Shown: positions 19,775-64,000, counted from the first letter of the stretch. The stretch is 64,000 nt of DNA from Acutalibacteraceae bacterium (GCA_045613805.1 JAZLBS010000056.1:32438-96437); one strand, 5' to 3'. Program-made: numbers and translations. Notes: generated from the sequence alone by a model not told the origin.

Positions 19775-19787
19775 AAATTTTTCTCTA

Positions 19788-31901: not shown

Positions 31902-31917
31902 TTAATCTCCCCCGTTT

Positions 31918-33165: not shown

Positions 33166-33169
33166 ATTG

Positions 33170-36257: not shown

Positions 36258-36295
36258 AGCATTATTACCTCAAAAACAAACATATACTATCTGTT

Positions 36296-43100: not shown

Positions 43101-44001
43101 TATTTACAAACAGACCGATTGTATTCTCTATATTTTTAAGAGGAATGCTTCTGCCGGAAATTACCTTATCAAACAAAATGTCATTACTTCCCGAAAACTT
43201 TTGCAGAGCAATACCAAAGGCAGATTCAAATACAGTATTATTTGAAACCTTATTCTTCTTTGCATACTCTTCAATTTTATCAGATGCAGCTTTACCGATA
43301 TAAGTTCTGAACGTTACAATATCTTTATTTATACTGTCGTTCTCTTTATCAAATATATGAGAATAAGAATAATCACTGAGCAAATTTTGCCAATATTCAG
43401 AAGCCTGTGATTTATCCTGTTTCTTCAGCCAATTTACATATTGTGCATAGGAGGTCTGATCTGATACCTCTTTGTTTATTTCTTCCGCCAACTCGTCTGT
43501 ATTTTTTCCCTCTGAAAACCCTTTGTAATACCGCTGTAAATCTTTCATTATTATGGGGAAACACCAACCGTCAAGGATAATATGATGTGAACGAAAAAGC
43601 AAAAAGCATTTATCAGTAAACTCTACTATAATAACCTTGAAAAGATTGTCCTTCTGCAAATCTAAAGGTTCTTTTGCATCCTCTTTAACAATTTCATCCA
43701 GAACAGACTGCGAAAACATCTTATCCTGCGATAAAACTGTAACTTCAGCAGTTCTGTTTTCAAGAATAACCTGCTTTATTACATTTGTGGATTTCAAAAA
43801 AGCGAATGCAGTTTTCAAAACCGGATGGCGAAGAAACAGTAATTCTATACTCTTTTTTATCAAGTTAAGATCAGCATCTTTATCAATTTCGAACAATGAA
43901 TGAAAATGATATATTTTCGCATCACCGCTCTGAAAATGCTGAACATATATACCTTCCTGAGCAGGCGTTAAGCTATAAATATCTTTAATGTTATTGTTCA
44001 T
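40165..44001 (-). CDS. NRPS, module 3: C-A(Ser)-T-TE
   Basis: C domain (HHIILDGWC). A domain (YTSGSTGNPKG, FDVSVWE, NLYGPTE, GELCIAG, YRTGD, NGQRIEIGEIE). Hand-extracted specificity code DVWHFSLVDK, equal to the EntF-type Ser code. T domain (FFDLGGTSYSM). TE (LPFAGGSS .. FYSHCVGSAVA .. SKNDRF .. SESHYF). The ATG at 44001 (MNNNIKDIY..) overlaps the upstream stop by 11 nt. The track start at 44019 is a TTG. Confidence 0.9.
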   Translation of the reverse strand: MNNNIKDIYSLTPAQEGIYVQHFQSGDAKIYHFHSLFEIDKDADLNLIKKSIELLFLRHPVLKTAFAFLKSTNVIKQVILENRTAEVTVLSQDKMFSQSVLDEIVKEDAKEPLDLQKDNLFKVIIVEFTDKCFLLFRSHHIILDGWCFPIIMKDLQRYYKGFSEGKNTDELAEEINKEVSDQTSYAQYVNWLKKQDKSQASEYWQNLLSDYSYSHIFDKENDSINKDIVTFRTYIGKAASDKIEEYAKKNKVSNNTVFESAFGIALQKFSGSNDILFDKVISGRSIPLKNIENTIGLFVNTVPIRFRSNETSTLADLMAETQKQTIDANRYGILSLSEIYKICNINGRLIDALFAFENYYIGEDLIDDMEKGLLSPKTVFFNEKTEFNLSVAVFKEKSEYIIRTSYSKDTYTEEEILSFVNSYISILELYSDGEKKVKDISVTDMKLLEGFNETEHSYDIPENATLYSLFEKTAKENEERICIRTTERALTFGELLTASEKLDAKIRTATKEEKSVIAVIAERSPEMYCAIYGIIRGGNAYLPIDPDYPQERIEYILENSSAAAAVVQGKFADKIRNIPCIDVTELMKKASDENMVIPECNAKPEDTAYVIYTSGSTGNPKGAMVSHKSAVNRILWMHDKYPLVKDDVILQKTPYTFDVSVWEHFWWGMCGGSLAVSKPGEHFLPAKILEEVHKNKVTHIHFVPSVFELFLNYLETHKEEIYKFESVRYVFLSGEALTANLIQRFYRMYDYSKVGIHNLYGPTECAVDVTYYDCAPTDADPVPIGKPIYNTQMYIVDKYNKAVPLGVMGELCIAGMNVGQGYLNNPDLTAEKFIDNPFGEGKLYRTGDNAYWREDGNIVFCGRIDNQIKLNGQRIEIGEIEAVILSLEEVESVAVILKKENGREFLVAFYSGKVVDEATVKEICRNKLPKYMVPSFTVHLDSIPLNSNGKLDRKSLAEMEFIITEEETSEPVNDTERYICRVFEKILGEKNVGRNSDFFDLGGTSYSMISLLSEDRFQNVSAAEFMRNPTPAMLASVLSEAPIRETKYLEALYVPQEAKRMLIILPFAGGSSEAFGNFVGSLKKTRNDIAVYFIRYLHSLEECENAASEIAKFSKDKKIMFYSHCVGSAVALQIISYLESNLISVEHYFAAASIPPVKAEKRNTWNYVPDLILKRILIGAGVNFSCLSEKKIEKILKDFRKDTDFARIAFSALAKRIKAPTSIILSKNDRFTQKYESAEILWKNYSEFVENISFIDSESHYFQSDDSDELIRIIMKDI

Positions 44002-50000: not shown

Positions 50001-51343
50001 TTCTCTTTGGCTGTCTTTTCAAATAGACTGTAAAGAGTAGAGTTTTCCGGAACATTATAGCTATAAACTGTATCGTTGAAATCAACATGTATTTTTTTCT
50101 TTTCTTCAGCTGAAAGCATTTCAAGCTCTGAGATTTTTTTCTCAGGATTCTCAAGTGCATCTTCAATTATAGCGATAAAAGAGTTCAACATAGTCTGAAT
50201 TTCTTTTTCAGTGAACATAGATGTTCGGTAACGAATTTTGAGATTGTGCTTTTCATTTCCGAAAGACTGCATATGAATCTCAAGAGGAAGAGAAAGAGAG
50301 TTACTGTAAACAAATTCAAACTCATAATCCTCGTTTTCGTCAAACTCCTGATAATCTGCAGCAATATCAAAAAGGTTGTTTTGCGGCTTACCTTCTTCTT
50401 TTAAAAGCTCTTTAATATCGTGTTGAGTGAACTTCTGGTGTCTGAATAAATTCATTTGTGCATCTTCAATTCCGGCAGCATTTTGTAAAAATGAACTGTC
50501 TGAAAGTTTTACAATCAAAGGGACGATGTGCATATAAAGTCCAATCGTATTAAGTTCAGCTTCAGTTGTTCTGTTAAGTACAGGAATTCCAAGTGTAAAG
50601 AAATCTGTTCCTGATGTTCTGTAAATATACACAGAATATACTGTATTGAAAAAGCTCTGAACAGATATTTCGTTATTGTAACAATATGTTTTAATTTTAT
50701 CAAACATTTCAGGAGCTACACTAAAATTAACCTCATCAGATGCGTAATCGAATGAGGTTTTCTTTTCTTCAAATATTGAGCATTGAGGGTTTAATGAAAA
50801 TTGATTTAACCAAAAATCATAGTCTTTTTTATAACGTTTTGAACCGATATAAGTTTTTTCATTCTGTATATGTGTTTGATAGTCTTCTGCTTTTTTCGAA
50901 TAGGATCCTTCATTTATAACAGTATTCAAAAAATCACACATTATTTGTCCGCTAAGACCATCAAGTATCAAATGATGGGCATTTATTATATAACCGGAAC
51001 CTCCATCAGTTTGAAAAATTATACAACCAAATAAACTTTGTTTAATGTCAATAGGTTTATTAACTAAAAGGTTTACTTCCTTTACCAGATGTTCCTTATT
51101 GTCGAAGCTCATAAAAGGATAATTAACTCTTTTGAAAGGTGTAACAGTTGTACTTGAGTTGCTATTTGATACAATTCTTATAGAATCAAATTTTTCAACG
51201 AAACAATTAAAAGAATCATTTAACCGTTCGTATGAATATCTTTTATAAAACCAACAAACCAGGCCATGGTTCCAAAGGTTTTCCTTAGATTTTATCAAAA
51301 AATTTTTTTGCGATGAAGTAACCTCAAATTTCAAAAATATCAC
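43991..51343 (-). CDS. NRPS, modules 1-2: Cs(starter C)-A(Ser)-T-C-A(Asn-like)-T-E
   Basis: Starter-type C domain (HHLILDGLS). A1 code DVWHFSLVDK (Ser). T1 (FFDIGGDSLKAIEL). C2 (MHHITVDGES). A2 code read as DLPKIGEVSK, closest remembered code Asn DLTKLGEVGK. T2 (FFNSGGDSIKAIY). The terminal domain has the epimerase-type motif HHFLVDLVSWEIL. The start is a GTG at 51343 or a TTG at 51334; this is uncertain. Confidence 0.9.
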   Translation of the reverse strand: MIFLKFEVTSSQKNFLIKSKENLWNHGLVCWFYKRYSYERLNDSFNCFVEKFDSIRIVSNSNSSTTVTPFKRVNYPFMSFDNKEHLVKEVNLLVNKPIDIKQSLFGCIIFQTDGGSGYIINAHHLILDGLSGQIMCDFLNTVINEGSYSKKAEDYQTHIQNEKTYIGSKRYKKDYDFWLNQFSLNPQCSIFEEKKTSFDYASDEVNFSVAPEMFDKIKTYCYNNEISVQSFFNTVYSVYIYRTSGTDFFTLGIPVLNRTTEAELNTIGLYMHIVPLIVKLSDSSFLQNAAGIEDAQMNLFRHQKFTQHDIKELLKEEGKPQNNLFDIAADYQEFDENEDYEFEFVYSNSLSLPLEIHMQSFGNEKHNLKIRYRTSMFTEKEIQTMLNSFIAIIEDALENPEKKISELEMLSAEEKKKIHVDFNDTVYSYNVPENSTLYSLFEKTAKENKDKICISTSEMSVSFGELLNLSESIDGKIRSITENKKSVIAIITERSIEMYAAIYGTIRGGNAYLPVDPDYPQDRIEYILKNSGAKAVAVQDKFADKVKNIPCIDMTELIKDENDSSNIPPCAAEADDTAYVIYTSGSTGNPKGAKVSHRSAVNRILWMHDKYPLGTDDVILQKTPYTFDVSVWEHFWWGMCGGKLAVSKPGEHFLPAKILDEASQNKVTHIHFVPSVFELFLNYLEVHTDEIEKFNSVRYVFLSGEALTANLIERFYRMYDYEKVSIHNLYGPTECAVDVTYYDCAPTDIDPVPIGKPIHNTQIYITDKYMKPVPVGVTGELCIAGMNVGQGYLNRPELTAEKFIDNPFGEGKLYRTGDNAYWREDGNIVFVGRSDFQVKIRGLRIELGEIESALQATDNIDRAVAVVRKDKEGRQLICAFYTGEEKASKALREELGKRLPKYMVPHIFTHLEEMPMTSSGKANRNALPEIELENISTETEYVAPGTEEEKILIDCIVDVLGAERVSILDNFFDIGGDSLKAIELTARIEEKGYTVPIKKIFSGKDIRELAEKLEAKEQEEESIEYGNVIPATAAQMRVYTAQMLVPDTTLYNVTYAFKSDSIDKTRLREAVNKLIERHESLRTHFENRDGVICQVIDESAEISVESIEDINTFTKPFDLGKSPLLRVGCNNDTVIISMHHITVDGESMPVFFRELNELYMGRELSGEAVQYGEFAVTDKYTEDNEKYWLNLFSDEKFGLNLPTDCQRGAVQSFKGSNIYEQIDISLHKRIEEKCKERGITPYVYYMACFSVFLSKLSGTEDIITGTPISGRQSRHLRAIGMFVNTIALRSRPEGNKKFSELLTEIRECSIEAIDNQNYPFGELVKKLGITASGRNPVYDVMLAYQSFEMTDISFADKKAELIPLSTEVSKCDMTFNILPRKDDVVLAIEYCSELFKEEKITGFAQMYVQLLEQCMDDSKYIKDISVTDMSLINSFNDTDSDYRKDKCIHELFEEQAERTPDKAAVVASDKTLTYRQLNEEANRIAHALIEKGIGKGDIVGLMLPRKSCFMVALFGVLKTGAAYLPLDPDHPEERNRTILVDSNAKLCISEENFYGLLENYVAENPDSAVVPDDFCYCIYTSGSTGSPKGALLYHRNLVWYMSVLKNLYGTENINMPFFTSQSVDLTVPSIYFPLITGGTVYMYNGELKNDLVSIFDNEKLNIIKFTPTHIGIVNKLVPAKSCPNIRCVIVGGESFYKDTCAQFLNKFGKHIEIHNEYGPTEATVSCTDFIVSPEDNTDGTYFSIGSPVNNAKIYITDNYLKPVAVGVTGELCIAGDGVGAGYLNNPELTAEKFIDNPFGNGKLYKTGDNAYWREDGSIVFAGRKDFQVKIRGLRIELGEIESAISGIDGINMSAAVVRSDAQDRALICAFYTGEKTEANQFRQILGERLPKYMIPHIFVHLKEMPLTVSGKIDRNALPEIELESISTETEYIVPKTVKEKALSDAVCSVMKLNSISMQDNFFNSGGDSIKAIYIVSELEEQGYELHISDVMQKETFSEMAEAMKSISEKVIYVQDEVNGYIPFSPIMRTYLKENDTVSDDFVHTCTVSVDCDEETAVKALDVLVSHHDILRGTVCEKGIIVHSSKDRDVYSTERITAADADSLRKYFEEKTLHEKPVHITFCNTDEGNFISISIHHFLVDLVSWEILIRDFMTVVEQLKNKEPISLPAKTASFKLWNEELQKYAESISEESKLYWKSVDEKLDNVKVFSEEKTDSEKAEKISFVLDKSLTGKLLNDTNYKYGTKPNEVLLTALGLAAAEMAEGSVGIIIEGHGRAELNKPIAIDRTVGWFTVCYPVVIDNNSNITDELINIKETLRRIPRGGVDYLLLSQEFHKNAEIKFNFYQADKDEKSRLVGFNSNGSVFRNRINVDCSVTEGILSVSISVPRWKYEAKFGERLGMVFREYIEKLVAACTENDIIIKTRSDFSDDELTESELDELKDLFDWTGDYEQ

Positions 51344-51368
51344 CTTTCAACCATATAATAATAAGACA

Positions 51369-52016
51369 TCATTTTTCCAGCGGAGTATCGTATAGTTTTA
51401 AATATGTATTACTTTCTTGTGCTGCATGTTTGCAAAAGAAATTAAAATAACGAGTAAATTTTCTTGCTTGCTGTTCTGTTAAATTGTCAACGCCTGTAAA
51501 AGCTTCTGCTTCTTCAAATAAAAATGTTGCATTGTGTGCCACATACTCTTTGCCGAGCTCAACATAAAAACAAAGAGTTTGCTCAAAACTTACATTCTCA
51601 ATCATGCCATAATCAATGCCGTGACTCAATATTCCACCAAAAGAACAGTCCAAGTATGCTGTAAAAGATTCTAAATATTTTTCACAACATCTGCGTTGAG
51701 AAGCTTCCGGATAACCGCTTTGCAATACATATGAAATGTTTTTATTTTTAATAGAATTTTTATTCTTAGATAATAGTTCTAAAAACTCCTTAAACAGACT
51801 TGGTACAATACCCACATAAACAGGTGTTGCAAAAACAATGTTATCTGCATCTGAAATTTTCTTTATTATTTGTTCCCATTCTGTCCTTTTGCATAAATAC
51901 AAAATTTCTGTTTCGCCCTTGCTTTCCAATATTCCTTTTTTAAAAGCCTTTATAAGCCTGTTTGTGTTACTGTATTCAAGAGAATGAGGTGTAGCGCTTA
52001 TTATCAAAACATGCAT
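51369..52016 (-). CDS. Flavodoxin-fold NAD(P)H-dependent FMN reductase-like protein
   Basis: MHVLIISATPHS..NTNRL..(x)..DADNIVFATPVYVGIVPSLFKEFLE, typical of the FMN_red/flavodoxin_2 family. SD GAGGAGG. 13-nt overlap with the upstream gene. Confidence 0.6.
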   Translation of the reverse strand: MHVLIISATPHSLEYSNTNRLIKAFKKGILESKGETEILYLCKRTEWEQIIKKISDADNIVFATPVYVGIVPSLFKEFLELLSKNKNSIKNKNISYVLQSGYPEASQRRCCEKYLESFTAYLDCSFGGILSHGIDYGMIENVSFEQTLCFYVELGKEYVAHNATFLFEEAEAFTGVDNLTEQQARKFTRYFNFFCKHAAQESNTYLKLYDTPLEK

Positions 52017-52516
52017 TTTATCGCCTCCTCAATATCAGCCAAGTGAAAAGTTCCCAGCGATTTATCACTGAAATGGTCCACATATAAATCCAACCAAGAG
52101 TTAAGCATAGTATTATCTGCTTCACCCTTATAAAGAACACCAATATTAAACTCTTTTGAATACCTTGACGGGTGTCTTATTTGCCCGTTTCTCCATTCGG
52201 AATAAACTATAACAAAACAATATCTTCTTTCAAAAAGCCGCATAGCTTTGTAGCTTAGAAAATTCATTTCTGTATCGGCAATAAATATTATATTGTCATA
52301 TTTAAAAAATAATCGTGCAATATCATTGTAATCGTCATTCAAACAACAAACACCAGGATTTTCAATCATACATTTATTGCATCCCGTACAATGCATAATA
52401 TTCATTTCACAGGTATTTACAACCTTTACATTGTCTGATATTTCCGAAAGTTTTTTTATAGCCTTAATCGCATCTTCATCATCTTCCGGCAAAGTATTAA
52501 TTATAAGCAAACTCAT
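52004..52516 (-). CDS. Flavodoxin-fold protein with a Cys cluster (iron-sulfur flavoprotein-like)
   Basis: MSLLIINT.. ..IMHCTGCNKCMIENPGVCCLNDDY.. ..DNIIFIADTEMNFLSYKAMRLFER resembles the Isf/NADPH-dependent FMN reductase family. Confidence 0.5.
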   Translation of the reverse strand: MSLLIINTLPEDDEDAIKAIKKLSEISDNVKVVNTCEMNIMHCTGCNKCMIENPGVCCLNDDYNDIARLFFKYDNIIFIADTEMNFLSYKAMRLFERRYCFVIVYSEWRNGQIRHPSRYSKEFNIGVLYKGEADNTMLNSWLDLYVDHFSDKSLGTFHLADIEEAIKCMF

Positions 52517-52536
52517 ATTTTATCATCTTCCAAATC

Positions 52537-52758
52537 TTATAATACTTTCTCAAGATATTCCACAACATCCTTGACAGTTTTGAACTTCTTCATGTCAGCA
52601 TTTGAAATCTCAATATCATATTCATCCTCAATTGCACAAATAAGCTGAACAAGACCTAAAGAAGAAAGTGGTAAATCCTTCATTTTGGTTTTCAAAGTCA
52701 ATTCTATATCTTCACGACCTACAACATCATTAAAAAGCTTCTGAAGTTCTGAAAGCAT
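52537..52758 (-). CDS. Stand-alone acyl carrier protein
   Basis: 73 aa, acidic, four-helix pattern. The phosphopantetheine-attachment context is ..DLPLSSLGLVQLICAIEDEY.. . SD AAAGGAG. Starts 5 nt after the ligase stop. Confidence 0.75.
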   Translation of the reverse strand: MLSELQKLFNDVVGREDIELTLKTKMKDLPLSSLGLVQLICAIEDEYDIEISNADMKKFKTVKDVVEYLEKVL

Positions 52759-52763
52759 ATTAA

Positions 52764-54494
52764 TTACTCCTTTATATCGTTTATCTCTTTTTCTAAAGAC
52801 AGATAATTCACCTTACCCATATTTGTTACAGGCAATTCATCTCTGAATATAATCTCATGAGGAAGAGAATATTCAGACAGATTGTTCTTACAACATTCCA
52901 TTATCTTTTCTTTCACTGCATCTTTGTCGGCATCCTTGTTGTTAAGTACAACAAATGCAGCGATTTTCTGTCCGTAAATTCTGTCACTTACCCCGACTAC
53001 ACAGCTCTGAGCCACAGCAGGACAGGTGCATATAGCATCTTCAACCTGTGTTGCATATACATTGTAACCGCCGCAGATTATCATACGGGAATTTCGCTGG
53101 CGGAAGTATATGAAACCGTCCTTATCTTTAGAAAACATATCGCCCGTGTGAAGCCACACCTTACCGTCACTGTGTAACTGTAAAGCCTTTGCGGTAGCCT
53201 CTTCATTTTTATGGTAGCCTTTCATTACAAGCGGGCCTGAAACACAAAGCTCACCGTCTTCACCGTCAGGCAATTCTTCTTGTGTTCCGGGTTTGACTAT
53301 TTTAAAATATACATCGGGATATGCAATACCCGCACTACCGATTCTTGTATCAAACTTAGGATTTATAGAACAGCCTGCAACACATTCAGTCTGACCGTAA
53401 GCCTCCCTGAGCACTACGTCAGCTCCGCCCTTTTTCAGCGTTTTATTGACTCTTTTCTGAAGCTTTTCAGGAAGCTTGTCGCCACCACAAACAAGAAGCT
53501 CCATAAAAGACAAATCTGCTTTATCAATATATTCACTTCTTATAAGCGCTTCAAATAGGCCGGGCACACCGTAAATACAATTAATCTTTTTCTTAAAGAT
53601 CAGCTTACTGCATTCATTGAAATCATATTTCGGAAGAAGATACACATGAAAGCCTAAGCTTAACATTGCATGAACACAAATCACCAGGCCAAACCCATGA
53701 AAAAGAGGCATAACAGCAAGAGATTTTTTTCCGACTACATCCTCTATACCGCCAATATCATATGTGTGTAATGCAAGACTGTTTATATTAAGATTGGTTA
53801 TCATAACACCTTTTGGTGTACCCGAAGAACCGCCACTGTAAAGAATAACGGCTGTATCGTCTGCTTTACCGTCATCTGTCGGCAATTCTCTTTTCTCTCT
53901 TTTGCCTTCGCTAATAAAATCATTCCAATAAATAACATCATGCTCCGGATTGAAAGTAAGCTTCAATTTATTCTTTGCTGAATAGACAGGCTTAGCATAC
54001 CAAGGCAGAGCATCAGCAATTTTCGCAAGAATCATTTTAGGCTCTTTTGAGGTATTCCACCGGATTTTCGCGAATTTAGGATAAATCATATCCAGGGTAA
54101 GAATTGCCACACTATCGGTATTTTCTACAAACTCCTGAATCTCTTTTGCAGAAAGTAGGGGATGAATCATATTGGCTATTGCACCTATACGGTTAAGTGC
54201 ATATATCATAAAAAGAGCTTGGGGTGTATTCGGTGCAACAATAGAAACACAGTCTCCTTTTTTAACCCCTGTTGCAATCAATGCCTTTGCAGCTTCTTCT
54301 ATATTTTTTATCAATTGCTTATAGGAATATTTTTTTCCCTGAAACTCTAAAGCACATAAATCAGGATATTTTAAAGCGCCTCTCCTCAGATGCTCAAAAA
54401 AAGAATATTCCGGATATTCAGAAATCCACTTGTCCGGATTCATATGGTCAAACCATATGGTTTTCACTCTATCCACAACAAACACCTCCCCCAT
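52764..54494 (-). CDS. Acyl-AMP/acyl-CoA ligase (ANL superfamily), the presumed lipo-initiation enzyme loading the adjacent ACP
   Basis: AMP-binding motifs (LYSGGSSGTPKG, EAYGQTE, GELCVSG, HTGD, GGYNV). The start is uncertain. The ATG at 54494 lies only about 10 nt from the -10 box and has no SD. An in-frame GTG at 54476 is preceded by GGGGGAGGTG. Confidence 0.8.
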   Translation of the reverse strand: MGEVFVVDRVKTIWFDHMNPDKWISEYPEYSFFEHLRRGALKYPDLCALEFQGKKYSYKQLIKNIEEAAKALIATGVKKGDCVSIVAPNTPQALFMIYALNRIGAIANMIHPLLSAKEIQEFVENTDSVAILTLDMIYPKFAKIRWNTSKEPKMILAKIADALPWYAKPVYSAKNKLKLTFNPEHDVIYWNDFISEGKREKRELPTDDGKADDTAVILYSGGSSGTPKGVMITNLNINSLALHTYDIGGIEDVVGKKSLAVMPLFHGFGLVICVHAMLSLGFHVYLLPKYDFNECSKLIFKKKINCIYGVPGLFEALIRSEYIDKADLSFMELLVCGGDKLPEKLQKRVNKTLKKGGADVVLREAYGQTECVAGCSINPKFDTRIGSAGIAYPDVYFKIVKPGTQEELPDGEDGELCVSGPLVMKGYHKNEEATAKALQLHSDGKVWLHTGDMFSKDKDGFIYFRQRNSRMIICGGYNVYATQVEDAICTCPAVAQSCVVGVSDRIYGQKIAAFVVLNNKDADKDAVKEKIMECCKNNLSEYSLPHEIIFRDELPVTNMGKVNYLSLEKEINDIKE

Positions 54495-54886: not shown

Positions 54887-55351
54887 TTAAAAATTCTCTA
54901 TCAGATATTCTTTTGCTTTTATCGTTACGAAAAAAAATTCTCTAGCAGGAACAGGGTCTGCTGCATAATCAACTAATTTTTGTCTGCGCTTCTCCAGTGG
55001 ATTGCGTTCTTCCCATTCAATAAACTTTCGTAGCCTTTCTTTTATTAAAGATTTATTTGTCCACTCATCACACCATTTTTCAAATTTAGTCATAATTTCT
55101 TGTGGTGTTGTAGGTTCAATATCTGTCATCCAATGACCATAATACAAATCTGTCGGCATTAAATCATTTATAAAAATTCCGGGACTAATATAATAATCCT
55201 CTTTATCATAAGAACTGCCTTGTATTAAGAAAGAAATGGTAAAATCATCCGTTTGTTTCGTCCATCTTTTGTTTTTCTTTTTAAATCCCTTTGCCTTTAA
55301 ATACGGCTTAACAAATTCAATCAATTCTGTTTCAGATAGTTTGTATTTCAT
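54887..55351 (-). CDS. Small cytoplasmic protein (154 aa), unknown function (DUF4304-like from memory)
   Basis: ORF with SD AGGTGGTGA and its own promoter. No TM segment and no catalytic motif. Confidence 0.5.
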   Translation of the reverse strand: MKYKLSETELIEFVKPYLKAKGFKKKNKRWTKQTDDFTISFLIQGSSYDKEDYYISPGIFINDLMPTDLYYGHWMTDIEPTTPQEIMTKFEKWCDEWTNKSLIKERLRKFIEWEERNPLEKRRQKLVDYAADPVPAREFFFVTIKAKEYLIENF

Positions 55352-55435: not shown

Positions 55436-55474
55436 AATAAGCCTGTTGAACAAGCAGTTAACAACAGGCTTATT
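55436..55474 (-). terminator. Perfect 13-bp hairpin ending the five-gene Hsp70-like/AAA+ operon
   Basis: AATAAGCCTGTTG (55436-55448) pairs with CAACAGGCTTATT (55462-55474). It lies about 100 nt downstream of the stop at 55573. The T-tract is only moderate. Confidence 0.45.
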
Positions 55475-55572: not shown

Positions 55573-56700
55573 TCAATATGGCAACTCGTCTGTCCAGAGT
55601 CTTTCATACAGTTTATCTTCATCTACTGTAGAAAACACAGGTTTATTCACCGGATCCTCTGCTTCTTGCACATCTTCTGATCTTTCGTAATTGTAGATAA
55701 TTTCTTCTGTATAGTAATCTTCAGAACCAACACTCGTTATTTCTTCTTTATTACTGTCAGATACGGAAATATACTTATCGGATAAGCTGAGCACGTCGCA
55801 GTTCAGAACATCGCTGAAGAACATATATAAAATCATTATCGGCAAAGCAGAAGCAAACACTACAACAAGAGATCCTATAAGAACCGCCTCTATGGCGACA
55901 AATGCGGTTTCTGCAAAGCATACAGCTGTAAGCGCAATCATTGCTGCAACAATAAGCAATGCAAGCATCCAGAAAAGCCAGGCCATGCCGTAATCATTTT
56001 CACTGATTGTTCCTTCTTCTTTTCTGATTGTAAGAGTGCCCATGAAAGCTTCGGTGCTTACAGCGTTAACAGTCTGATCAATAGTTATGCCTTCAGGAAA
56101 ATCCTTAAAATGACCATTTTTTACCATTGTATAAATAATCATGGATTGTACGGCAGCTATAGCTCTGTCATCAAAGGTTCCGTTTACATTGATTCTTGCT
56201 CTGATATCTTCTATGCTACAGTTTGAGAAAAGCTCAGAGAAACTTCCCATAACTTCGGGAGACTCCATAACGGAAACTGCCTCATCAAGAAGTGTTTCAA
56301 GATTTTTTGATGAATCCATCTGATACATTGCTTTCAAAGCACTTTCATCAACGGTAATACCTTTTTTTATTTTGTAAATGTTCCCGAAAGAATGTTTTGC
56401 CGCCATAAGAATTTCTGCTTTTTGTTCATCAGTAAAGCCGTTCAGCATATCTGAAAGCTTTTCCTTTACCGTATCGCCCTTTGCGTCACAGACCTTTTCA
56501 TATGTGTTGAAAAGATTGTTTACGGTAGAAATAATACTATCTGCCATAAGCTCTGCCTGTTTTTCAGATTTCCCCTGCATATTTTCAAGGTAAATCTTTT
56601 TAAGAACATCCTTCGTGTCAGCACCTTCATCAAAATGAGAAAGTGCAAATGCTGTATTTTTTTGCAGCTCAATTTTTTCTTCAGGTGTTAAATTTAACAT
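55573..56700 (-). CDS. 375-aa protein: helical cytoplasmic N-domain, two adjacent TM helices, acidic C-tail; unknown function
   Basis: ORF with SD AAAGGAGG. TM hairpin ..WLFWMLALLIVAAMIALTAVCFAETAFVAIEAVLIGSLVVVFASALPIMILYMFF.. . I recognise no motif. Confidence 0.6.
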   Translation of the reverse strand: MLNLTPEEKIELQKNTAFALSHFDEGADTKDVLKKIYLENMQGKSEKQAELMADSIISTVNNLFNTYEKVCDAKGDTVKEKLSDMLNGFTDEQKAEILMAAKHSFGNIYKIKKGITVDESALKAMYQMDSSKNLETLLDEAVSVMESPEVMGSFSELFSNCSIEDIRARINVNGTFDDRAIAAVQSMIIYTMVKNGHFKDFPEGITIDQTVNAVSTEAFMGTLTIRKEEGTISENDYGMAWLFWMLALLIVAAMIALTAVCFAETAFVAIEAVLIGSLVVVFASALPIMILYMFFSDVLNCDVLSLSDKYISVSDSNKEEITSVGSEDYYTEEIIYNYERSEDVQEAEDPVNKPVFSTVDEDKLYERLWTDELPY

Positions 56701-56789
56701 AATAAAACCTCCTTTTAGATTTATTATATCTTTCCGATCTTAAAACTTCGATGGTTCATCAAGAAAAAAAGTGATTAAAAGTAGTTTTT

Positions 56790-58766
56790 TTAACAACAAT
56801 CGTTCATATATTCATTTTCCTCTATACGGGCAGCCATCAAGGAAATTCTGTCTTTCATTACTTTGAAAAAAGCTTCGTCATAATACTTATCCGATTTACA
56901 ATCTCCCTGATAATATGCTTCGATTTTTTCGCCTTTGTATTCTACCTTATATCTCTCGTTTTCGAACAGACTGTTATCCCCCACGGGAACGAAGCTTTTT
57001 CTGAGAAGTCTCACATAGCATGCAGCAATTTTATTGAGATCTGCATAAGAACTGCCAAGCGTAACAGTACCGGAATCGTTAATAGTTTTTTCTAGTGCGT
57101 TTTTCCAATCAATAAATGATATGGGAGATTCAAGCTTTTCTTCAGGAAAGCTTCTGAGAGCACTGATTATAATTTTTTCAATGTCAGCACCGGTAACAAA
57201 TTTGATTTTATCCGATTCTTTTTTGTTGCCGTTTTCATCTTCGGTAAAAAGCTTCATAATTGATTCAAGTGCTTCATCTGTGAAGCATCCTAAAGTTTTG
57301 TCATCACTGAATAAATTCTGCGGCATTTTCATACCGAATTCCTCTGCACGCTTTTTTCTGCGTCTTTCGGCTCTTTTCATCTGCTCGGAGAAAATGCTTT
57401 TACACTCCTCGTGATTAGGCATAAACACACCGTAAAGAACATCAAATCGTCCGCTTCTGAATAATTCAGGCGGAAATTTGCTGATATCGTTTGCCGTAGC
57501 AAAAACAAAGCATGGACTTTCCTTTTCCTGAAGCCAGGTGAGAAGATGTCCGAACATTCTTTTAAAGGTTCCGCCGTCACCGGAAGAGTTTGTAGCACCA
57601 CTGAGACCCTTGTCAAGCTCATCTATCCAGAGCACGCACGGTGCCATTGCTTCAGCCTGAGACAAAGCTTGTCTGAGATTCCTTTCGGACTGACCGAGAA
57701 GACCGCCCATAAGAGCATCAATGTCAAGGCGAAGCATCGGTATTCCAAGCTGACGGTAGATTACCTTTGCAGCTTCTGATTTACCGCAGCCTGGTACACC
57801 TACAAAAAGTGTTCCCTTATAATCCTTTGTGCCTGAAGTTACAACAAATCTGCCGCCGTTCCTCATTGTTATTCCTATTTTTTCAACCCATTTCACATAA
57901 GCGGACATACCACCTATCTGATTTTCTCCGGAGATTTTTTTCTCTCCTCTGTTTTCTTCTTCGTCTTTATCTTCATAATAGAGCTTCAGAAGACCGCCAT
58001 AGCGCTTTAAATTCTGTTTTTTTGCTTCGAGAATTATCTTTCTTCTTGCTTCCTCGTTGTGAAGCTTTGGTTCTCCGCTTTCCTGTGTCAGATAAAGCAT
58101 CATACTTGTATAGAACTCCACCTGTATAAGTGTAAAGCCTAACATAGAACGAGCAATCTCATCTGCATAAGAATCTTTTTCAAAAGGATGCCCGAAATTT
58201 TCCGCCAATTCAAGTACAGTGCTTTTTATTTCCTCGAAATCGGGATAATCCACCGTGATAATCTGGGTATAGGATTTAATGTCATCAGGAAGTAGTGTAG
58301 GATCGCCGTATAACAGAACGCAGCTCGATCTCAATGGAGAATGGTCATTATGTGAAAGCACATAATTTCTGACATAATTTCTCAATGCACTTATAATACT
58401 TATATTCTCAGGATTTCCTGTTGAATCAGAATTACCGTTAAGACTTAACAGCACAAGCTTTGCATTCATATTGTGATCATCATTCATTCCGGCTGAGCAC
58501 AACTCTTTAAGTGATGATATGTGTGCAGAAAAATTTTCAAAGGTTTCTAATAAATCCTTATCTAAGTCGAAAAACTTGACATACCTTTCAATTTCTACAT
58601 TTTTAACTATAGCCTTTCTGAAAAGCTCAACAGTGTTGCACCTTGCAGCTACACGGTTGGCAAGTTCAATTTCTTCTGTATCAATCATAATAAGCGGCGT
58701 GTGCGCATGGTAGTAATCTCTTACTTGTCTGCATATTTTATCAACAACACTCATTTTATTTTTCAT
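56790..58766 (-). CDS. Classical AAA+ ATPase (658 aa) with a degenerate N-terminal AAA-like half and one intact AAA module
   Basis: Walker A GVPGCGKSEAAK. Walker B VLWIDELDK. Second region of homology ATANDISKFPPELFRSGRFD. Lid FVTGADIEKII. The N-terminal half lacks a P-loop (..SSCVLLYGDPTLLPDD.., ..MLGFTLIQVEFY..). The ATG at 58766 is preceded by GAGGAG (7 nt) and overlaps the upstream stop in the string ATGAAAAATAA. Confidence 0.85.
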   Translation of the reverse strand: MKNKMSVVDKICRQVRDYYHAHTPLIMIDTEEIELANRVAARCNTVELFRKAIVKNVEIERYVKFFDLDKDLLETFENFSAHISSLKELCSAGMNDDHNMNAKLVLLSLNGNSDSTGNPENISIISALRNYVRNYVLSHNDHSPLRSSCVLLYGDPTLLPDDIKSYTQIITVDYPDFEEIKSTVLELAENFGHPFEKDSYADEIARSMLGFTLIQVEFYTSMMLYLTQESGEPKLHNEEARRKIILEAKKQNLKRYGGLLKLYYEDKDEEENRGEKKISGENQIGGMSAYVKWVEKIGITMRNGGRFVVTSGTKDYKGTLFVGVPGCGKSEAAKVIYRQLGIPMLRLDIDALMGGLLGQSERNLRQALSQAEAMAPCVLWIDELDKGLSGATNSSGDGGTFKRMFGHLLTWLQEKESPCFVFATANDISKFPPELFRSGRFDVLYGVFMPNHEECKSIFSEQMKRAERRRKKRAEEFGMKMPQNLFSDDKTLGCFTDEALESIMKLFTEDENGNKKESDKIKFVTGADIEKIIISALRSFPEEKLESPISFIDWKNALEKTINDSGTVTLGSSYADLNKIAACYVRLLRKSFVPVGDNSLFENERYKVEYKGEKIEAYYQGDCKSDKYYDEAFFKVMKDRISLMAARIEENEYMNDCC

Positions 58767-59940
58767 TTTTTTGCTCCTCAAAATAATCACCTATTGTAAC
58801 ATAGCGTTTTTCCGTCTTTTTACTGCTGTTTGTGTGTATTTTTCCTTCCGGATCAAGATACACATAATATCCCTTGTGAAAAGCAACCTCAACCGCAGAT
58901 GACTGGCACAGATATCCGATATTACGCTGAGTGTACCAATAATCTTCGATTCCTTTCTCTGTAACGGCAAGAAATCCGATATCTCTTTCCTCAGCAGCAA
59001 AGCTTATCATTTCCGAGTCGCCGAACGCTATAGTCTCCGTTTTCTCTGAAATAAAATCAGAAAAAAGTATGGTATCGACCTTTCTTTCAACCGAACAAAG
59101 ATTGCTTTCGCTTCTTACAGGATGAACATAAACGGGCAGGTTTTCAACAATGTTTATGTATCTGTAGTCACCGGGCATAAAGCTTACTGTCTCTTTTTCA
59201 CCTTCTGTATTCTCTTTGTATATATGAAGAGTTACGGGTATATTGGCAGCACCCTGACCGTGTGGGGCTGCCACAATCTTTTTATATCTAATCTGAGCTT
59301 TTTCTCCTTCAACAAGCTTTTTTGCTTCAGCAGATTTCAAAATTATTACATAAGGCTCTTCTCTTGCCTTCAGAAAAACAGCATTTTTCTCTTCTGTTAA
59401 TGAAACAGCAGTATCTGCATCATCAACCCTCTTTTTCAGATATGCATTTTCAGCCTGCTGCGCTGTTACGGAATATCCGTTTTCATCAGGATCTTTTCCC
59501 GAAATGGCATACGCTGAGGTAAGAAGACAGAAAAGTATCTGCTTATCATTTTCAGCAAGAGAGGTATCCTGAACGACATTCCATACTTTTTTTGCAAGCT
59601 CTCTGACTTTTGTTCTTTCAAGCTCATCCCTCAGATAATCTCTTTTTATTTTTGACAGTAAATTTACTCCTGTCTTTTTATGCTCTTTACAAGCGAATTC
59701 TGCCTTTTCGTAATCTGACGGTCTCCTGAACTGATAAAGGAGAAGACGTTTATCACCTAAAAATACCATCTGAAAAAAAATCTCTGTGTGATATCCGTCA
59801 ATTATAGAAAGATGTCTGACCTTATTGCGGAGAAACCCTGCAACAAGCTCTTTGTTATAAAGAACATCTTCTGCAGAGAAGTATCGACAAAAGTCTCCGT
59901 GAGTATGTATTGCTTTTGAATTCATAATCAATTGTTGCAT
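58756..59940 (-). CDS. 394-aa cytoplasmic protein, unknown function
   Basis: ORF with SD AAAGGAGAAGG. Starts 19 nt after the Hsp70-like stop and is translationally coupled to the AAA+ gene. I recognise no motif. Confidence 0.6.
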   Translation of the reverse strand: MQQLIMNSKAIHTHGDFCRYFSAEDVLYNKELVAGFLRNKVRHLSIIDGYHTEIFFQMVFLGDKRLLLYQFRRPSDYEKAEFACKEHKKTGVNLLSKIKRDYLRDELERTKVRELAKKVWNVVQDTSLAENDKQILFCLLTSAYAISGKDPDENGYSVTAQQAENAYLKKRVDDADTAVSLTEEKNAVFLKAREEPYVIILKSAEAKKLVEGEKAQIRYKKIVAAPHGQGAANIPVTLHIYKENTEGEKETVSFMPGDYRYINIVENLPVYVHPVRSESNLCSVERKVDTILFSDFISEKTETIAFGDSEMISFAAEERDIGFLAVTEKGIEDYWYTQRNIGYLCQSSAVEVAFHKGYYVYLDPEGKIHTNSSKKTEKRYVTIGDYFEEQKNEK

Positions 59941-59959
59941 TAACCCTTCTCCTTTGCTG

Positions 59960-62083
59960 TTATTTTATATCAGGCTTTTCGTCAAAGACATAGAACATCA
60001 CCTTACCCAAAATTGCTTCGGCATCAACCAAAAGCTTGGTAATTTCTTTAGAGCTTATATAATTATCACCTTTCATTTTAGAGGAAACTTTTTTCCTCAC
60101 CGTATGCTTAAATATACGTAATTTCATAATAGCATAAAGAGTTTTAAGTACAACTATCGGAATTTTAGTATCCTTTTTTTCGAGATAACCCTTTACTTTA
60201 TTCACAAGACCGTCCTTGTCAACTTCTTTATACGCAAAAATTAATGCTGCAGCCTCAAAACTTATTGGCAAAGCAATTACGGCAATTATATTAATAACAG
60301 AAGACAAAAGAGACTGTATAATTGCTTTTTCTCCGTTACTTTTATACTGTGCGCTGAATTCATCAGGCATATTTCCTTTTCCCACCGGCGTTTCAGGCGA
60401 AATACTGAAATCCTCTTTGTATATATCTCTGGAAATCTCGTTTGTTTTTTTTGAAACATCTGCACGGTAGCTTGAAACGGCTTCCGAAAATACAGTTTTT
60501 ATTTTTTGGGTTTCTGTTCCGTTTTCAGAATGAAGACCTTCTTTGCTTTTTTTTTCAATAAATGCAACAATCTCATTATAAGATTTCGGATTATTGCTTT
60601 GTATAATTTCATCTATAACCAGAAATATGGTATCCATAACATACGGAACAAAAAACTTTGAGGTTTGGTCAATCACATTTTTGTATGTTTTACACGCTTT
60701 TTTATATGCATATTTCTTATAATTTTTCAGGTAATCAATACCTTTCATCTCTAATTTCTTGATAAGACAAAGACCGTCTGCGACACAAAGTGAAGGATTA
60801 TCTATCTTGGGGATCTTTTCTTCACCGAAAATATCGGAAGCAAGCTCAGTTAAAGGAATAACCTTGCTGCAACCGCCTGCCAGAATTACCTTATCACAAT
60901 TGTTGCCTTTTAAGGTTCCTTTACATTCGAGAAGAAAGGCCCTGATTCTATCGATAAACTTACCTGTGCCTGGGCGTTCTTCTGAGTTCAGAGCTTCCAT
61001 TATAACCTCATTGGTTATTTCAAACTCTTCACAGAGCATAGAAAATTTAATTTTAAAATTACCTTTTGAATTAAAAAATCTCTCTTTTGCATCACGGACA
61101 GAGACAAGAACACCCGGCAAATCTTTGTCGGATATATCTGCTTTTTTCATCTTCTTGCCGGCAAGAAGAACATCAAGAATAAGCTTATCAATAATATGAC
61201 CGCCTATGTTAATGCTTCTGGTTACCAGTTTTATGCCGGGTAAAATATATGTAAAGTCGATGGTACTGGAGCCGAAATCAAAAATTGCAATTCCCTTGTT
61301 CAGATCAATTTTTCCGTTACCCTTGATTCTTATGTTGTTGCTCTTTAAAAGAAGAGACATAAGTGCTGCTGTTGATTCGGGTACAACAGCAACTGCTTCA
61401 ACACCTGTTGCTTCGCTTATAAGCTTTGCATATTTTTTTACGGCATCGGCTCTTGTCCATTTTGTTGAAGCGGGGCAGCCTACACAGATAAGAACTTTTC
61501 CATTTTCATATGCAGCCTCAAGATCCGCACCGTTATGAGTCCGTATCTGCTCAAAAAGCTTTTTATAATAAGCAGATATCAGTCTTTTCGGCGGATATGC
61601 CACTTCATCATCTTGTTTATCCCATATAAGAGGAGAAACCTTAAAATGCTGAAAAAAAACAGGCGCGTCTTTAGCATCCGAACCTATATACGGTTCATCA
61701 TTTTCATCAAAAGCTATCATTGTGGGAATAACAGTATCCTTTTCGGTAAGCTTTGCCGCCTCCGAAAAATATTCGGTTGTTTTTTTCTCTTCATTGTAGA
61801 CTCTTTTTAAAATATACGCCGCTGTTTCACCATGACCGAAATCAATGCCGAGAACATAATCATATTTACACTTATAAGTCTCTTCACCATCTTCTTTTTT
61901 AAAGGTTAAGCTCTTAAGAACAGAATAAAAGTCGTCTGTAGTAAGGCTGCCATTGATAAGATAACATTCTGACATTACACGTTTTTTTGATTCGGTGCTT
62001 TCTGCAGCTTTCTTTTCAGGCTCAGCTGTTTCAATTTCAGAGTCCTTCTTGACTGTTAAGTCAGTAACTTTTGTGTCGTTCAT
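59960..62083 (-). CDS. Hsp70/actin-fold ATPase (707 aa) lacking a DnaK-type substrate-binding domain, with a C-terminal hydrophobic helix
   Basis: Phosphate-1 VLGIDFGHGETAA. VPESTAALMSL (compare EPTAAA). Phosphate-2 IAIFDFGSSTIDF. IGGHIIDKLI. Adenosine motif VILAGGCSKVIPL. NPSLCVADGLC. The C-terminal ~230 aa include VINIIAVIALPISFEAAALIFAY. SD GGAGGAAG. Confidence 0.8.
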   Translation of the reverse strand: MNDTKVTDLTVKKDSEIETAEPEKKAAESTESKKRVMSECYLINGSLTTDDFYSVLKSLTFKKEDGEETYKCKYDYVLGIDFGHGETAAYILKRVYNEEKKTTEYFSEAAKLTEKDTVIPTMIAFDENDEPYIGSDAKDAPVFFQHFKVSPLIWDKQDDEVAYPPKRLISAYYKKLFEQIRTHNGADLEAAYENGKVLICVGCPASTKWTRADAVKKYAKLISEATGVEAVAVVPESTAALMSLLLKSNNIRIKGNGKIDLNKGIAIFDFGSSTIDFTYILPGIKLVTRSINIGGHIIDKLILDVLLAGKKMKKADISDKDLPGVLVSVRDAKERFFNSKGNFKIKFSMLCEEFEITNEVIMEALNSEERPGTGKFIDRIRAFLLECKGTLKGNNCDKVILAGGCSKVIPLTELASDIFGEEKIPKIDNPSLCVADGLCLIKKLEMKGIDYLKNYKKYAYKKACKTYKNVIDQTSKFFVPYVMDTIFLVIDEIIQSNNPKSYNEIVAFIEKKSKEGLHSENGTETQKIKTVFSEAVSSYRADVSKKTNEISRDIYKEDFSISPETPVGKGNMPDEFSAQYKSNGEKAIIQSLLSSVINIIAVIALPISFEAAALIFAYKEVDKDGLVNKVKGYLEKKDTKIPIVVLKTLYAIMKLRIFKHTVRKKVSSKMKGDNYISSKEITKLLVDAEAILGKVMFYVFDEKPDIK

Positions 62084-62170
62084 AATTCTTCCTCCAATGT
62101 TTTTAATTCTGTTTTAACTGTATTATAATACATTCCTTTATGTAAAAAAAACAGGTTGTCGAGAAAAAAA

Positions 62171-63100
62171 CTATTCTTTATATGGGGAACTGAACTCACC
62201 GTAATTTTCTCTGCCACTTGACAAATAGTCAACTATTTCCATGACATCGGTGGGATCCTTACGTCCGAGCAGCTTATAACCTGTGGTAATTGCTGTCAGA
62301 AACGCCAGATCACAGACCATAACAAAGTCACTGCCCGCTTTGTTTAAAAATGCTTTTGCCGTATCCGCTTCAAAACCGAAGCCTGTAATCAGCTTGAGCA
62401 GTGTACCCTGAGAGGTTCTTGATTTTTTGGAATTTTCGATTTTATCATTCGACTCTTCTTTAGTCTTTTCACTGATTTTTCTCCACGCATCCGTACTGAT
62501 ATAGGAATAAATAAGAAAATCTTCAACTCCCATACCTGTAGCTTCTCTCAATGCATATATTTCATTACGAAACTCAAAAGAAAGATAGAAATATCTGGGC
62601 ATATTAAGTGCTTTCATTTCCTCTTTTTCTTCTTCTGTGAGATTAAGCCCGACAGATAGTTTTTCAATGGTTTTATCTGAGGTATATTTCATTGCATATA
62701 TAAAATCAAGAAAAACCTTTGTATTGAGTTTTATCTCTTTACATAAGGCAATACGCTCCTTCTTAATGAGCATTTTTTTCAGCTCATCCAGAGCACTCTT
62801 TTTATTCATATATGCCAACGTATTAATCTGCTTTATCGCTCTTTCCGAAAGGCCCGTTATGTTGGTTGTGCTTTTTAAAATTTCTAAAACCCTTTCAAAT
62901 GCAACCATATCGTTTTCGAGAAAAGCCTTCTGAATATCTTCAGTTATTCCAAGATCATATACAAGTGTTTTTTCTGCACGCAGCATAAGCTTATCCATAA
63001 CAAAGTCACTGCACGCAGTTCTGCGCTTTTTTATCTTTTCATCCATTAAAAGGTTGTTCATATTCTCTTCAAGGGCAATTAATTCGCTTTTTGTAAGCAT
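62171..63100 (-). CDS. 309-aa helical protein with several degenerate HTH-like segments; first gene of the operon
   Basis: The preferred start is the MLTKSELIALEE.. ATG at 63100, with GGAG 9 nt upstream. The 40-codon N-terminal extension in the track covers the promoter. Repeated segments: DLGITEDIQKAFLEN, ITGLSERAIKQINT, VGLNLTEEEKEEM, ITGFGFEADTAKAFLNK. Confidence 0.6.
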   Translation of the reverse strand: MLTKSELIALEENMNNLLMDEKIKKRRTACSDFVMDKLMLRAEKTLVYDLGITEDIQKAFLENDMVAFERVLEILKSTTNITGLSERAIKQINTLAYMNKKSALDELKKMLIKKERIALCKEIKLNTKVFLDFIYAMKYTSDKTIEKLSVGLNLTEEEKEEMKALNMPRYFYLSFEFRNEIYALREATGMGVEDFLIYSYISTDAWRKISEKTKEESNDKIENSKKSRTSQGTLLKLITGFGFEADTAKAFLNKAGSDFVMVCDLAFLTAITTGYKLLGRKDPTDVMEIVDYLSSGRENYGEFSSPYKE

Positions 63101-63137
63101 AACACAACATCTCCTTGTACATATAATATGTGAATCT

Positions 63138-63166
63138 ATTTTAACACTTTGAACAAAATATTTCAA
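63138..63166 (-). promoter_or_regulatory. Sigma-A type promoter of the Hsp70-like/AAA+ operon
   Basis: The minus strand reads TTGAAA-17 nt-TAAAAT with a TG extension (TGtTAAAAT), about 38 nt upstream of the ATG at 63100. Confidence 0.6.
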
Positions 63167-63249
63167 CAAAAAAACAAATATATTATAAAATACATGTATT
63201 GTGATATTCATGAGCAGCAATGTAGTACTTTTGCTTATCTTACTTTTTG

Positions 63250-63288
63250 AGCAAACAAAGAAGGGCGGCTGCTAAATGCAACCGCCCC
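63250..63288 (-). terminator. Rho-independent terminator of the gene at 63300-64000
   Basis: GGGCGG (63263-63268) pairs with CCGCCC (63282-63287), extended by a further TG/CA pair. On the minus strand it is followed by TTCTTTGTTTGCTC. Confidence 0.6.
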
Positions 63289-63299: not shown

Positions 63300-64000
63300 T
63301 TATACAATTACTGTTGCGGGCGTCTGTACCTGAAATTCTGCTTTTGCCGATTCAGTATGAGCCTCTGTAACCTCTTGGCTTTCTACATCAATGGTATCTG
63401 CAATGATTTCAAGACCGTCAAGTACATCTTCACGGTTGTAGCTTGCATATCTGTGCTTTGCTACAAAACTACCTATACAGGTTGATTCATCTACTTTTTT
63501 TTCAACAGCACAAAGGCCGACACATGCAATAAGACTAAAAATTGCAGCCAGAATTAATACTGCTGCCAATTCCTCAGAAGCTAATAATATTACACTGGCA
63601 ATAGCGGCTATCAAGAAAAAATATTGTCCGGTACTAGTAATAGAATTAATAAGATTTTTAGCATGTTCGTTGGTAATCTCGCCGAATCTGGCTGCACATG
63701 CAACTGCCTGAATGTCAGCTTCCTGACTGCCAAGATACACAGCCTCTTCAACACTCATGGTTCCGTTTCGGAGATATAAATCCATTGAGTGGATACATCT
63801 GTATCTGTACCCCATCTCTCCGAGAACGACAGAAGTAGCCAAAGGATCATATGATTTCGAAAGTTTTCTCTTATAGTCTCTGAGATGATTGGAAGAAAGA
63901 CAGCTGTGAGAAAGCTTTTCTTTGATGCTTTCAACAAGGTTTTCTTCTGAACACTCTTTGTAGCCCTCTGCCTTCATATACTTATCAAAACGAGTTTTCA
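63300..64000 (-). CDS. Membrane protein (at least 225 aa) with a TM hairpin; possibly 5'-truncated by the window edge
   Basis: ORF from the track (first Met at 63977). The frame stays open upstream to nt 64000 (..KTRFDKY-M..) and there is no obvious SD before 63977. TM hairpin YFFLIAAIASVILLASEELAAVLILAAIFSLIACVGLCAV. Confidence 0.5.
   Translation of the reverse strand, partial: KTRFDKYMKAEGYKECSEENLVESIKEKLSHSCLSSNHLRDYKRKLSKSYDPLATSVVLGEMGYRYRCIHSMDLYLRNGTMSVEEAVYLGSQEADIQAVACAARFGEITNEHAKNLINSITSTGQYFFLIAAIASVILLASEELAAVLILAAIFSLIACVGLCAVEKKVDESTCIGSFVAKHRYASYNREDVLDGLEIIADTIDVESQEVTEAHTESAKAEFQVQTPATVIV

Follow-up and report, generated by a model that had tools for sequence, protein, structure and literature searches.

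A gene cluster in which an Hsp70-type ATPase is encoded together with a classical AAA+ ATPase was identified on the minus strand of a 64,000-nucleotide stretch of an Acutalibacteraceae bacterium genome (GCA_045613805.1 JAZLBS010000056.1:32438-96437), hereafter the window. The cluster is real, apparently undescribed as a system, and built from known ATPase folds. Five of its genes, labelled G1 to G5 in order, had been picked out in a reading of the DNA made without database searches (the sequence-only reading), which took them as a cleanly delimited unit. That boundary did not hold. A sixth gene, G0, lies upstream and is cut by the window edge, and since it is always present and paralogous to G5, the unit comprises at least six genes. 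The six make up a single conserved module. We infer that it works as a protein-remodelling machine at the membrane, powered by its two ATPases, and we offer this account tentatively, as one that falls somewhat short of probable.

The account draws on the complete co-occurrence of the genes, a core that is kept in a second phylum, intact ATPase motifs, consistent structural models and the hairpin topology of the membrane proteins. Although Pfam, NCBIfam, PHROGs and PADLOC offer no annotation for four of the six families, at least 18 Clostridial lineages keep the set intact, and a rearranged version occurs in common human-gut Bacteroides such as B. intestinalis. The genes and their products are listed below, with helix-turn-helix abbreviated to HTH and nucleotide-binding domain to NBD.

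63300-64000, minus strand: G0, N-terminal ~120 residues beyond the window edge; predicted membrane-hairpin protein, paralogue of G5
62171-63100, minus strand: G1, 309 aa; soluble helical protein with repeated degenerate Xre-type HTH-like units
59960-62083, minus strand: G2, 707 aa; Hsp70-type NBD at ~76-445, long helix at 430-496, all-helical C-terminal domain
58756-59940, minus strand: G3, 394 aa; helical N-domain at 1-170, beta-rich C-domain with weak propeller-blade resemblance
56790-58766, minus strand: G4, 658 aa; N-region of ~285 aa, one intact AAA module at ~300-470, lid, conserved C-terminal region
55573-56700, minus strand: G5, 375 aa; cytoplasmic helical N-domain (~230 residues), two-helix membrane hairpin at ~236-306, acidic tail

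Conservation and operon structure

Genomic contexts were gathered by exact look-up, by a scan of GTDB species genomes and by a metagenome scan, and family hidden Markov models were run on all open reading frames (ORFs) of the loci. The 28 Clostridial-type loci obtained correspond to 18 clusters at 90% identity or less. When gene counts were restricted to loci with enough flank, G3 was present in 15 of 15, G1 and G0 each in 14 of 14, and G4 and G5 each in 12 of 12. Co-occurrence was complete in the 18 distinct loci, as far as flank allowed, so the five genes first noticed do form a conserved unit beyond this genome, and chance is excluded because the whole gene set is kept in all 18. The hosts are gut anaerobes, seen as metagenome-assembled genomes of Oscillospirales and other Clostridia from animal and human guts, and the families diverge to 25-50% identity between genera. 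Two gene orders were seen. The window type reads G0-(Gx)-G1-G2-G3-G4-G5, and the second reads G1-G0-Gy-G2-G3-G4-G5, with G0 in one or two copies and often an EcsC-family gene after G5.

A second version of the cluster was found in 13 Bacteroidales loci, including that of cultured Bacteroides intestinalis, as an eight-gene operon in the order Bc2-Bc3-Bc6-Bc7-AAA-Bc5-Bc4-Hsp70-like. In profile-profile comparison its AAA+ ATPase aligned with G4 over the full length (602 columns, probability 100), the NBD of its Hsp70-like protein with G2 (probability 99.9), Bc5 with G3 (probability 97.5), and Bc3 with both G5 (probability 98.7) and G0 (probability 97.5). Judged by these profile matches, the cluster extends across two phyla. 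The same comparison gave no relation to any other family for G1, Gy206, Bc2, Bc4, Bc7 or the C-terminal domain of G2. Adjacency or overlap of the G3-type and AAA+ genes is kept in both phyla despite the different gene order. Bc6, directly upstream of the AAA+ unit, is a zincin peptidase (annotated as SprT-like, YgjP-like or M48), and its presence there points to protein processing.

Many further gut loci carry the Bc4 and Hsp70-like pair without the AAA+ gene. The companions in these loci include a second Hsp70-like protein, a 944-aa HerA/FtsK-like ATPase, MORN repeats, a radical SAM enzyme and a SprT-like peptidase. The HerA/FtsK-type module, which is preceded by NusG-like and sigma-factor-like genes, was found in locus L069 at 7013-19839 and also in L048, L101, L105, L107 and L113. 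Some Bacteroidales loci concatenate both modules, with the HerA-type module directly after the AAA+ operon.

Within the window, ORF coordinates bear out the five minus-strand genes of the sequence-only reading and the gaps of 87, 19, -11 and 89 nt between them. The G3/G4 overlap is 11 nt long and reads ATGAAAAATAA, as had been noted, and through it G4 is predicted to be translationally coupled to G3. Shine-Dalgarno sequences of the GGAG type precede every start codon (aaggaga, ggagga, aaggaga, gaggag and aaggagg for the five genes), close to the GGAGG type that had been described. The other signals of the unit are as follows.

63262-63288, minus strand: predicted intrinsic terminator 3' of G0; 11-pair stem with 8 GC pairs and a T-rich tail
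63138-63166, minus strand: predicted sigma-70-type promoter with extended -10, 5' of G1; TTGAAA-17-TAAAAT with TG, 10/12 matches
55436-55474, minus strand: 13-bp perfect hairpin closing the operon, AATAAGCCTGTTG/CAACAGGCTTATT; direct sequence reading

All three had been claimed beforehand. A consensus scan recovered the promoter at 63166-63138, and a scan recovered the terminator stem at 63288-63262. The closing hairpin was read directly in the sequence at 55474-55436, and the consensus scan scored only its inner 6 pairs. An 11-nt direct repeat with 13-nt spacing, TTTGAACAAAA/TTTCAACAAAA in plus-strand letters, lies at 63148-63171, where it overlaps both the -35 box and the spacer in the promoter of G1; it is a candidate operator and may perhaps serve the HTH-like G1. 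Neither tRNA genes nor Rfam matches were found across the 64-kb window.

The two ATPases and their partner families

Profile, alignment and structure searches agree that G2 has all the nucleotide-binding motifs of the Hsp70/actin fold and no DnaK substrate-binding domain, as had first been proposed. Its sequence matched Hsp70 NBDs in the PDB (2e-6), HscA (4e-9) and MreB_Mbl (5e-6), the last with 26 bits against a cutoff of 27; the Pfam HSP70 model was not passed by the window protein. The catalytic positions that are invariant in an alignment of 22 homologues (D81, G83, G85 and E86; K148; E236; D269, G271 and S272; G403 and G404) cover phosphate-1, phosphate-2, adenosine and the catalytic Lys/Glu. 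Structures were predicted for G2 and G3 with AlphaFold2 (AF2). The G2 model (predicted local distance difference test, pLDDT, 80.8; predicted template-modelling score 0.78) has a disordered N-terminus, the NBD, a 67-residue helix and an all-helical C-terminal domain. In a Foldseek search with this model the top 50 matches were all Hsp70s, with the NBDs of BiP and DnaK best (E 4e-13; template-modelling (TM) score 0.63-0.69, and 0.6-0.69 across the top 50). A beta-sandwich substrate-binding domain with a helical lid is absent from the model, in which everything beyond residue 430 is helical.

The relatives of G2 are few, with ~48 detectable in a word-indexed search of 5.8 billion proteins. The protein had been described as membrane-tethered, on the strength of a hydrophobic helix that hydropathy places at 586-619. 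This helix is missing in several homologues and in the Bacteroides protein, so a membrane tether is not a conserved property of G2.

In G4, by its sequence motifs, every element expected of an active, ring-forming classical AAA+ ATPase is present. PF00004 gave a single match (1e-26, residues 320-445), the nearest solved structure by sequence is p97 D2 (5e-36), and PAN and FtsH are among the other best matches. The family keeps Walker A, Walker B, sensor-1 and the Arg fingers, in the motifs GVPGCGKS, ILWIDELDK, ATAND and FRSGRFD. The ATPase motif assignments for G2 and G4 were therefore upheld by the profile and structure searches. RefSeq names the Bacteroides orthologue, which aligns over the full length, as a SpoVK/Ycf46/Vps4 family AAA+, and through this name we type G4 provisionally as a classical AAA+ of the SpoVK/Ycf46 kind.

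The intact AAA module was thus confirmed by PF00004 and the motifs, while the degenerate AAA-like first half that had been proposed for G4 found weak backing. The N-region reads LLYGDP without GKT and so has no Walker A, and the top PDB match of the profile for its lid-like stretch is the paraplegin AAA lid at E 0.07. An internal duplication was considered and rejected, as hhalign of the N-region (285 aa) against the protein's own AAA module gave a probability of 1%. A phage family with no known function, phrog_8638, matches G4 residues 127-472, including part of the N-region, at 3e-63; some phages therefore encode the same AAA+ subtype.

No family in Pfam, NCBIfam or PHROGs was found for G0, G1, G3 or G5, and profile searches of PDB sequences with G1, G3 and G5 gave nothing below E 0.03. 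For G1, the sequence-only reading of a helical protein with repeated HTH-like segments stands as to the repeats, which are visible in the family alignment. Their HTH nature is suggested by weak matches, namely HTH_31 at 3e-5 in one homologue and a weak HTH_26 match; window G1 itself had no Pfam match. G3, whose AF2 model has a pLDDT of 87, belongs to a rare family with 169 representatives at E 1e-3 or better among 1.84 billion proteins. Its gene always adjoins that of G4 and overlaps it in most cases.

Alignment and hydropathy confirm the transmembrane hairpin and acidic tail that had been noted in G5. In the family alignment the tail ends in the motif LYxxLWxDxLP[IY]. A homologue search with G5 returned two proteins only, and its sole match in PADLOC is a weak one to PDC-M25B (0.007). 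The G0 frame is open to the window end. Its residues 1-197 align with 122-306 of a 334-aa homologue in locus L001 at 41% identity, hydropathy places its hydrophobic hairpin at residues 113-162, and hhalign of G0 against G5 gave a probability of 96. On this comparison G0 and G5 are paralogous, and their predicted common plan joins a helical domain in the cytoplasm to a tight membrane hairpin of two helices and a tail that is again cytoplasmic. G0 is kept in every locus counted.

Proposed mechanism, rival explanations and genomic context

In the machine that we propose, the G4 ring would act on the cytoplasmic domains or tails of G0 and G5, by ATP-driven pulling, disassembly or extraction of proteins or oligomers. 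G3, with its helical and propeller-like domains, would be the adaptor of this ring. The hairpin proteins G0 and G5 would be membrane anchors or clients of the machine, and the acidic G5 tail with its terminal amphipathic motif could provide a docking or engagement site. The long helical tail of G2 may let it serve as a clamp or scaffold gated by nucleotide, and G1 may be a regulator of the operon or a partner of G2. In Bacteroidales the peptidase would complete a processing pathway. The output would be an altered membrane complex, and stress tolerance, envelope biogenesis or conflict are all compatible with the data.

Several observations weigh against this account. G3 has no confident structural match, since Foldseek returned only RCC1 and WD40 proteins at E ~3e-3 and a TM score of ~0.2. 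The tail motif of G5 is confined to one subclade, and the Hsp70-like proteins of the Clostridial and Bacteroidales versions show no relation in their C-terminal domains. In G4, pore loop 1 reads GG[LVY]VG and lacks the usual aromatic residue, so that processive threading by G4 is not assured.

If the mechanism holds, bacteria would have a new way to link an Hsp70-type ATPase with a classical AAA+ ring at their membrane, and the SpoVK/Ycf46 branch of AAA+ proteins, which is poorly understood, would gain a function. A bolder version, which we consider doubtful, sees a new class of membrane-acting system in gut Bacillota and Bacteroidota. In it, an Hsp70-like sensor or clamp, a Ycf46-type AAA+ ring and a propeller-like adaptor would control the paralogous hairpin proteins of the membrane, and infection or stress would trigger ATP-driven hairpin release and membrane collapse or remodelling. 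If true, this would be a new principle of immunity or membrane repair, with HerA-like and SprT-like modules as optional add-ons. The question is directly testable because a cultured, genetically tractable Bacteroides carries a version of the cluster.

Among the rival explanations, an abortive anti-phage or conflict system fares best, although we think it rather unlikely. G2 and/or G3 would sense an invader protein, and G4 would release or activate the G0 and G5 hairpin proteins, which would then damage the membrane. The rare and patchy G3 family fits this, as do the fast divergence between genera and the modularity of Bacteroidales loci that join the pair of Hsp70-like and transmembrane proteins to the HerA/FtsK-like ATPase, SprT-like peptidase, MORN repeats and radical SAM enzyme. 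The defence ATPase IetA is the library entry that matches the G4 core best, some loci have integrase, HipA or PDC-S01 genes beside them, and ADP-ribosylglycohydrolase genes are recurrent nearby. Against it, PADLOC models match no component beyond the AAA core, and no recognisable toxin, nuclease or NADase domain was found in the cluster.

Genomic context bears on the same question. The neighbour scans covered 104 proteins from 14 Clostridial loci and 87 proteins from 12 Bacteroidales loci, and returned mostly housekeeping functions, such as PFK, tRNA methyltransferases, two-component systems, HflX, RNase P and RlmN. Defence matches among the neighbours are few and scattered. The recurring neighbour families are EcsC, LRR_5, DUF1810, ADP-ribosylglycohydrolase, WG repeats and DUF1232. 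A tblastn search of plasmids with G2 found only DnaK and one unrelated match, G4 matched AAA cores only in phages, and a scan of viral contigs found no copies. A phage or plasmid origin was rejected, since the phage, plasmid and viral-contig collections contain no copies. With housekeeping neighbours and no such copies, the context gives no backing to the accessory conflict module that the sequence-only reading had suggested. A defence role is thus unproven: the context neither supports nor contradicts it, and rarity, divergence and modularity still fit.

ADP-ribosylglycohydrolase genes lie within a few kb of the system in Bacteroidales loci L040, L043 and L048, downstream of the Hsp70-like gene, and a gene with a NADAR domain lies near it in one Clostridial locus (L005, 20238-22166). 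These recurring neighbours hint at a link to ADP-ribosylation.

The cluster might otherwise be a dedicated assembly or export chaperone for surface or membrane proteins encoded close by, such as EcsC-family proteins, BspA-type LRR_5 proteins or a protein with ten transmembrane segments that is paired with DUF1810 (the D369+DUF1810 pair). This we regard as improbable. An EcsC-family gene does follow G5 on the 3' side in eight loci of the second gene order, and LRR_5 and the D369+DUF1810 pair lie within 5 kb in several genera, even after rearrangement. However, none of the three is found beside the window copy or in L001, none is recurrent in Bacteroidales, and the core has no secretion-type ATPase, signal-peptide cargo or channel protein.

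An explanation in which G2 is a polymerising actin-like protein of the ParM, MreB or FtsA kind has still less to recommend it. G2 would then form a membrane cytoskeletal or positioning filament, with G1 as HTH-type adaptor and G4 as disassembly factor. The MreB_Mbl match just under the cutoff and weak FtsA, MamK and PilM matches lend it some support, and so do the HTH-like repeats in G1, as RodZ is an HTH-type adaptor of MreB. The searches weigh against it: Foldseek groups the NBD with Hsp70s throughout the top 50 and not with MreB or ParM, and Hsp70 also comes first among the PDB sequence matches, so the filament-forming actin branch (MreB/ParM/FtsA) is not nearest to G2.

That the cluster encodes a general disaggregase as a paralogue of DnaK-ClpB, which the presence of an Hsp70-type NBD and an AAA+ protein in one operon might suggest, is barely credible. 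G2 is without a substrate-binding domain, and neither a J-domain protein nor GrpE was found. G4 is of the classical clade, has one active module and matches ClpA at Walker A only (E 0.003). The four dedicated partner families, of which two are membrane proteins, speak for a specific client.

The GC content of the window is ~0.39-0.46 at 1-30 kb and ~0.32-0.42 at 30-64 kb, with the operon in the lower-GC part, and the drop near 30000 suggests separate histories for the first half and for the second half, to which the operon belongs. A gene for a DUF4304 protein (54887-55351, minus strand) lies directly downstream of the operon hairpin, has its own promoter-like site and is not conserved beside the system elsewhere. 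Other features of the window are as follows.

40165-54494, minus strand: ORFs of 1284 and 2450 aa, then a flavodoxin-like FMN reductase (51369-52016) and an AMP-binding enzyme (52764-54494)
37611-39821, plus strand: 736-aa fusion of prolipoprotein diacylglyceryl transferase (LGT) and an MFS transporter domain
30066-37051, minus strand: TerY-P-like operon with a vWA protein (36296-37051), a Ser/Thr kinase (33170-34297) and three proteins without a Pfam match, of 657 aa (34284-36257), 434 aa (31918-33222) and 611 aa (30066-31901)
28986-29852: GH43 glycosidase, in the higher-GC half
26602-27750: PI-PLC-like protein, in the higher-GC half
8482-16269, minus strand: 2595-aa ORF

The gene set at 40165-54494 would fit the nonribosomal peptide synthetase island named in the sequence-only reading.

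Relation to known systems

The sequence-only reading had matched the gene set to no named defence, secretion or stress system, and the Pfam, NCBIfam, PADLOC and PHROGs searches agree. PADLOC v2 gave no matches for G0, G1, G2 or G3, and matched G4 at the AAA core only. Sporulation, pilus, secretion and ESX systems were rejected, as no family model matched; sporulation is also argued against because the cluster is present in non-sporulating Bacteroidales. A search of the literature found no description of this cluster, with incomplete coverage that makes this no proof of absence.

DnaK-ClpB, whose logic the sequence-only reading had invoked, likewise combines an Hsp70-type ATPase domain with a ring-forming AAA+ protein. 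The analogy describes the logic only loosely and fails all family tests. The peptide-binding domain is missing from G2, and neither a J-domain protein such as DnaJ nor GrpE is encoded by the six genes or appears in the top families of the 104 neighbouring proteins. G4 belongs to the classical clade, with p97 D2 and SpoVK/Ycf46 nearest, and not to Hsp100. The two Clp-clade AAA+ modules and the M-domain of ClpB/Hsp100 are absent: G4 has no M-domain, and its match to the ClpA model is confined to residues 318-350. The present cluster also always carries four additional dedicated proteins, of which two are membrane proteins.

For the AAA core of G4, the best library match is IetA of the IetAS system (PADLOC IetA 3e-22; NCBIfam IteA 6e-20). 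The match covers the AAA core only (profile ~120-275) and reaches 72 bits, whereas the curated NCBIfam cutoff is 510. The operon has no gene for an IetS serine protease.

Hsp70-family ATPases outside general chaperoning are described in CoCoNuT systems, as CnuD (PMC11090510), and in DO-GTPase/tubulin/HSP70 systems (PMC7159879). The parts of these papers available to us describe one CoCoNuT extension with an Hsp70 alongside a SpoVK-like AAA+ of which only the second module is active (PMC11090510), and centre the Hsp70-containing conflict systems on McrB-type GTPases or on GAP1-type GTPases with tubulin (PMC11090510, PMC7159879). As the systems are defined in those parts, the present core differs in having no McrB-type GTPase, McrC, HEPN, vWA, tubulin or GAP1-type GTPase in or beside it, and the same parts make no mention of the partner families G0, G1, G3 and G5 (PMC11090510, PMC7159879).

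FtsH is an AAA+ of the same clade that acts at the membrane, and its combination with a zinc peptidase resembles the Bacteroidales version. Here the ATPase, peptidase and membrane anchor are separate proteins, the Bacteroidales peptidase is SprT/M48-like and not M41, and the Clostridial version has no peptidase.

The nearest solved structures by sequence, with p97 D2 at 5e-36, come from the Cdc48/p97, Vps4 and Msp1-type classical AAA+ ATPases, which work with adaptors. The cluster differs in that no double-psi barrel, MIT domain, ubiquitin-like or ESCRT-III-like partner was detected in it, and in that the single PF00004 match in G4 departs from the N-domain and two Walker-competent AAA modules of Cdc48/p97/VAT. 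The pore loop of G4 lacks the aromatic residue, and the adaptor role of G3 is putative. G4 may nevertheless share with these ATPases an inactive first half before the active module, and like them it appears to have a dedicated adaptor-like partner gene and candidate clients, which carry an acidic tail and a terminal amphipathic motif.

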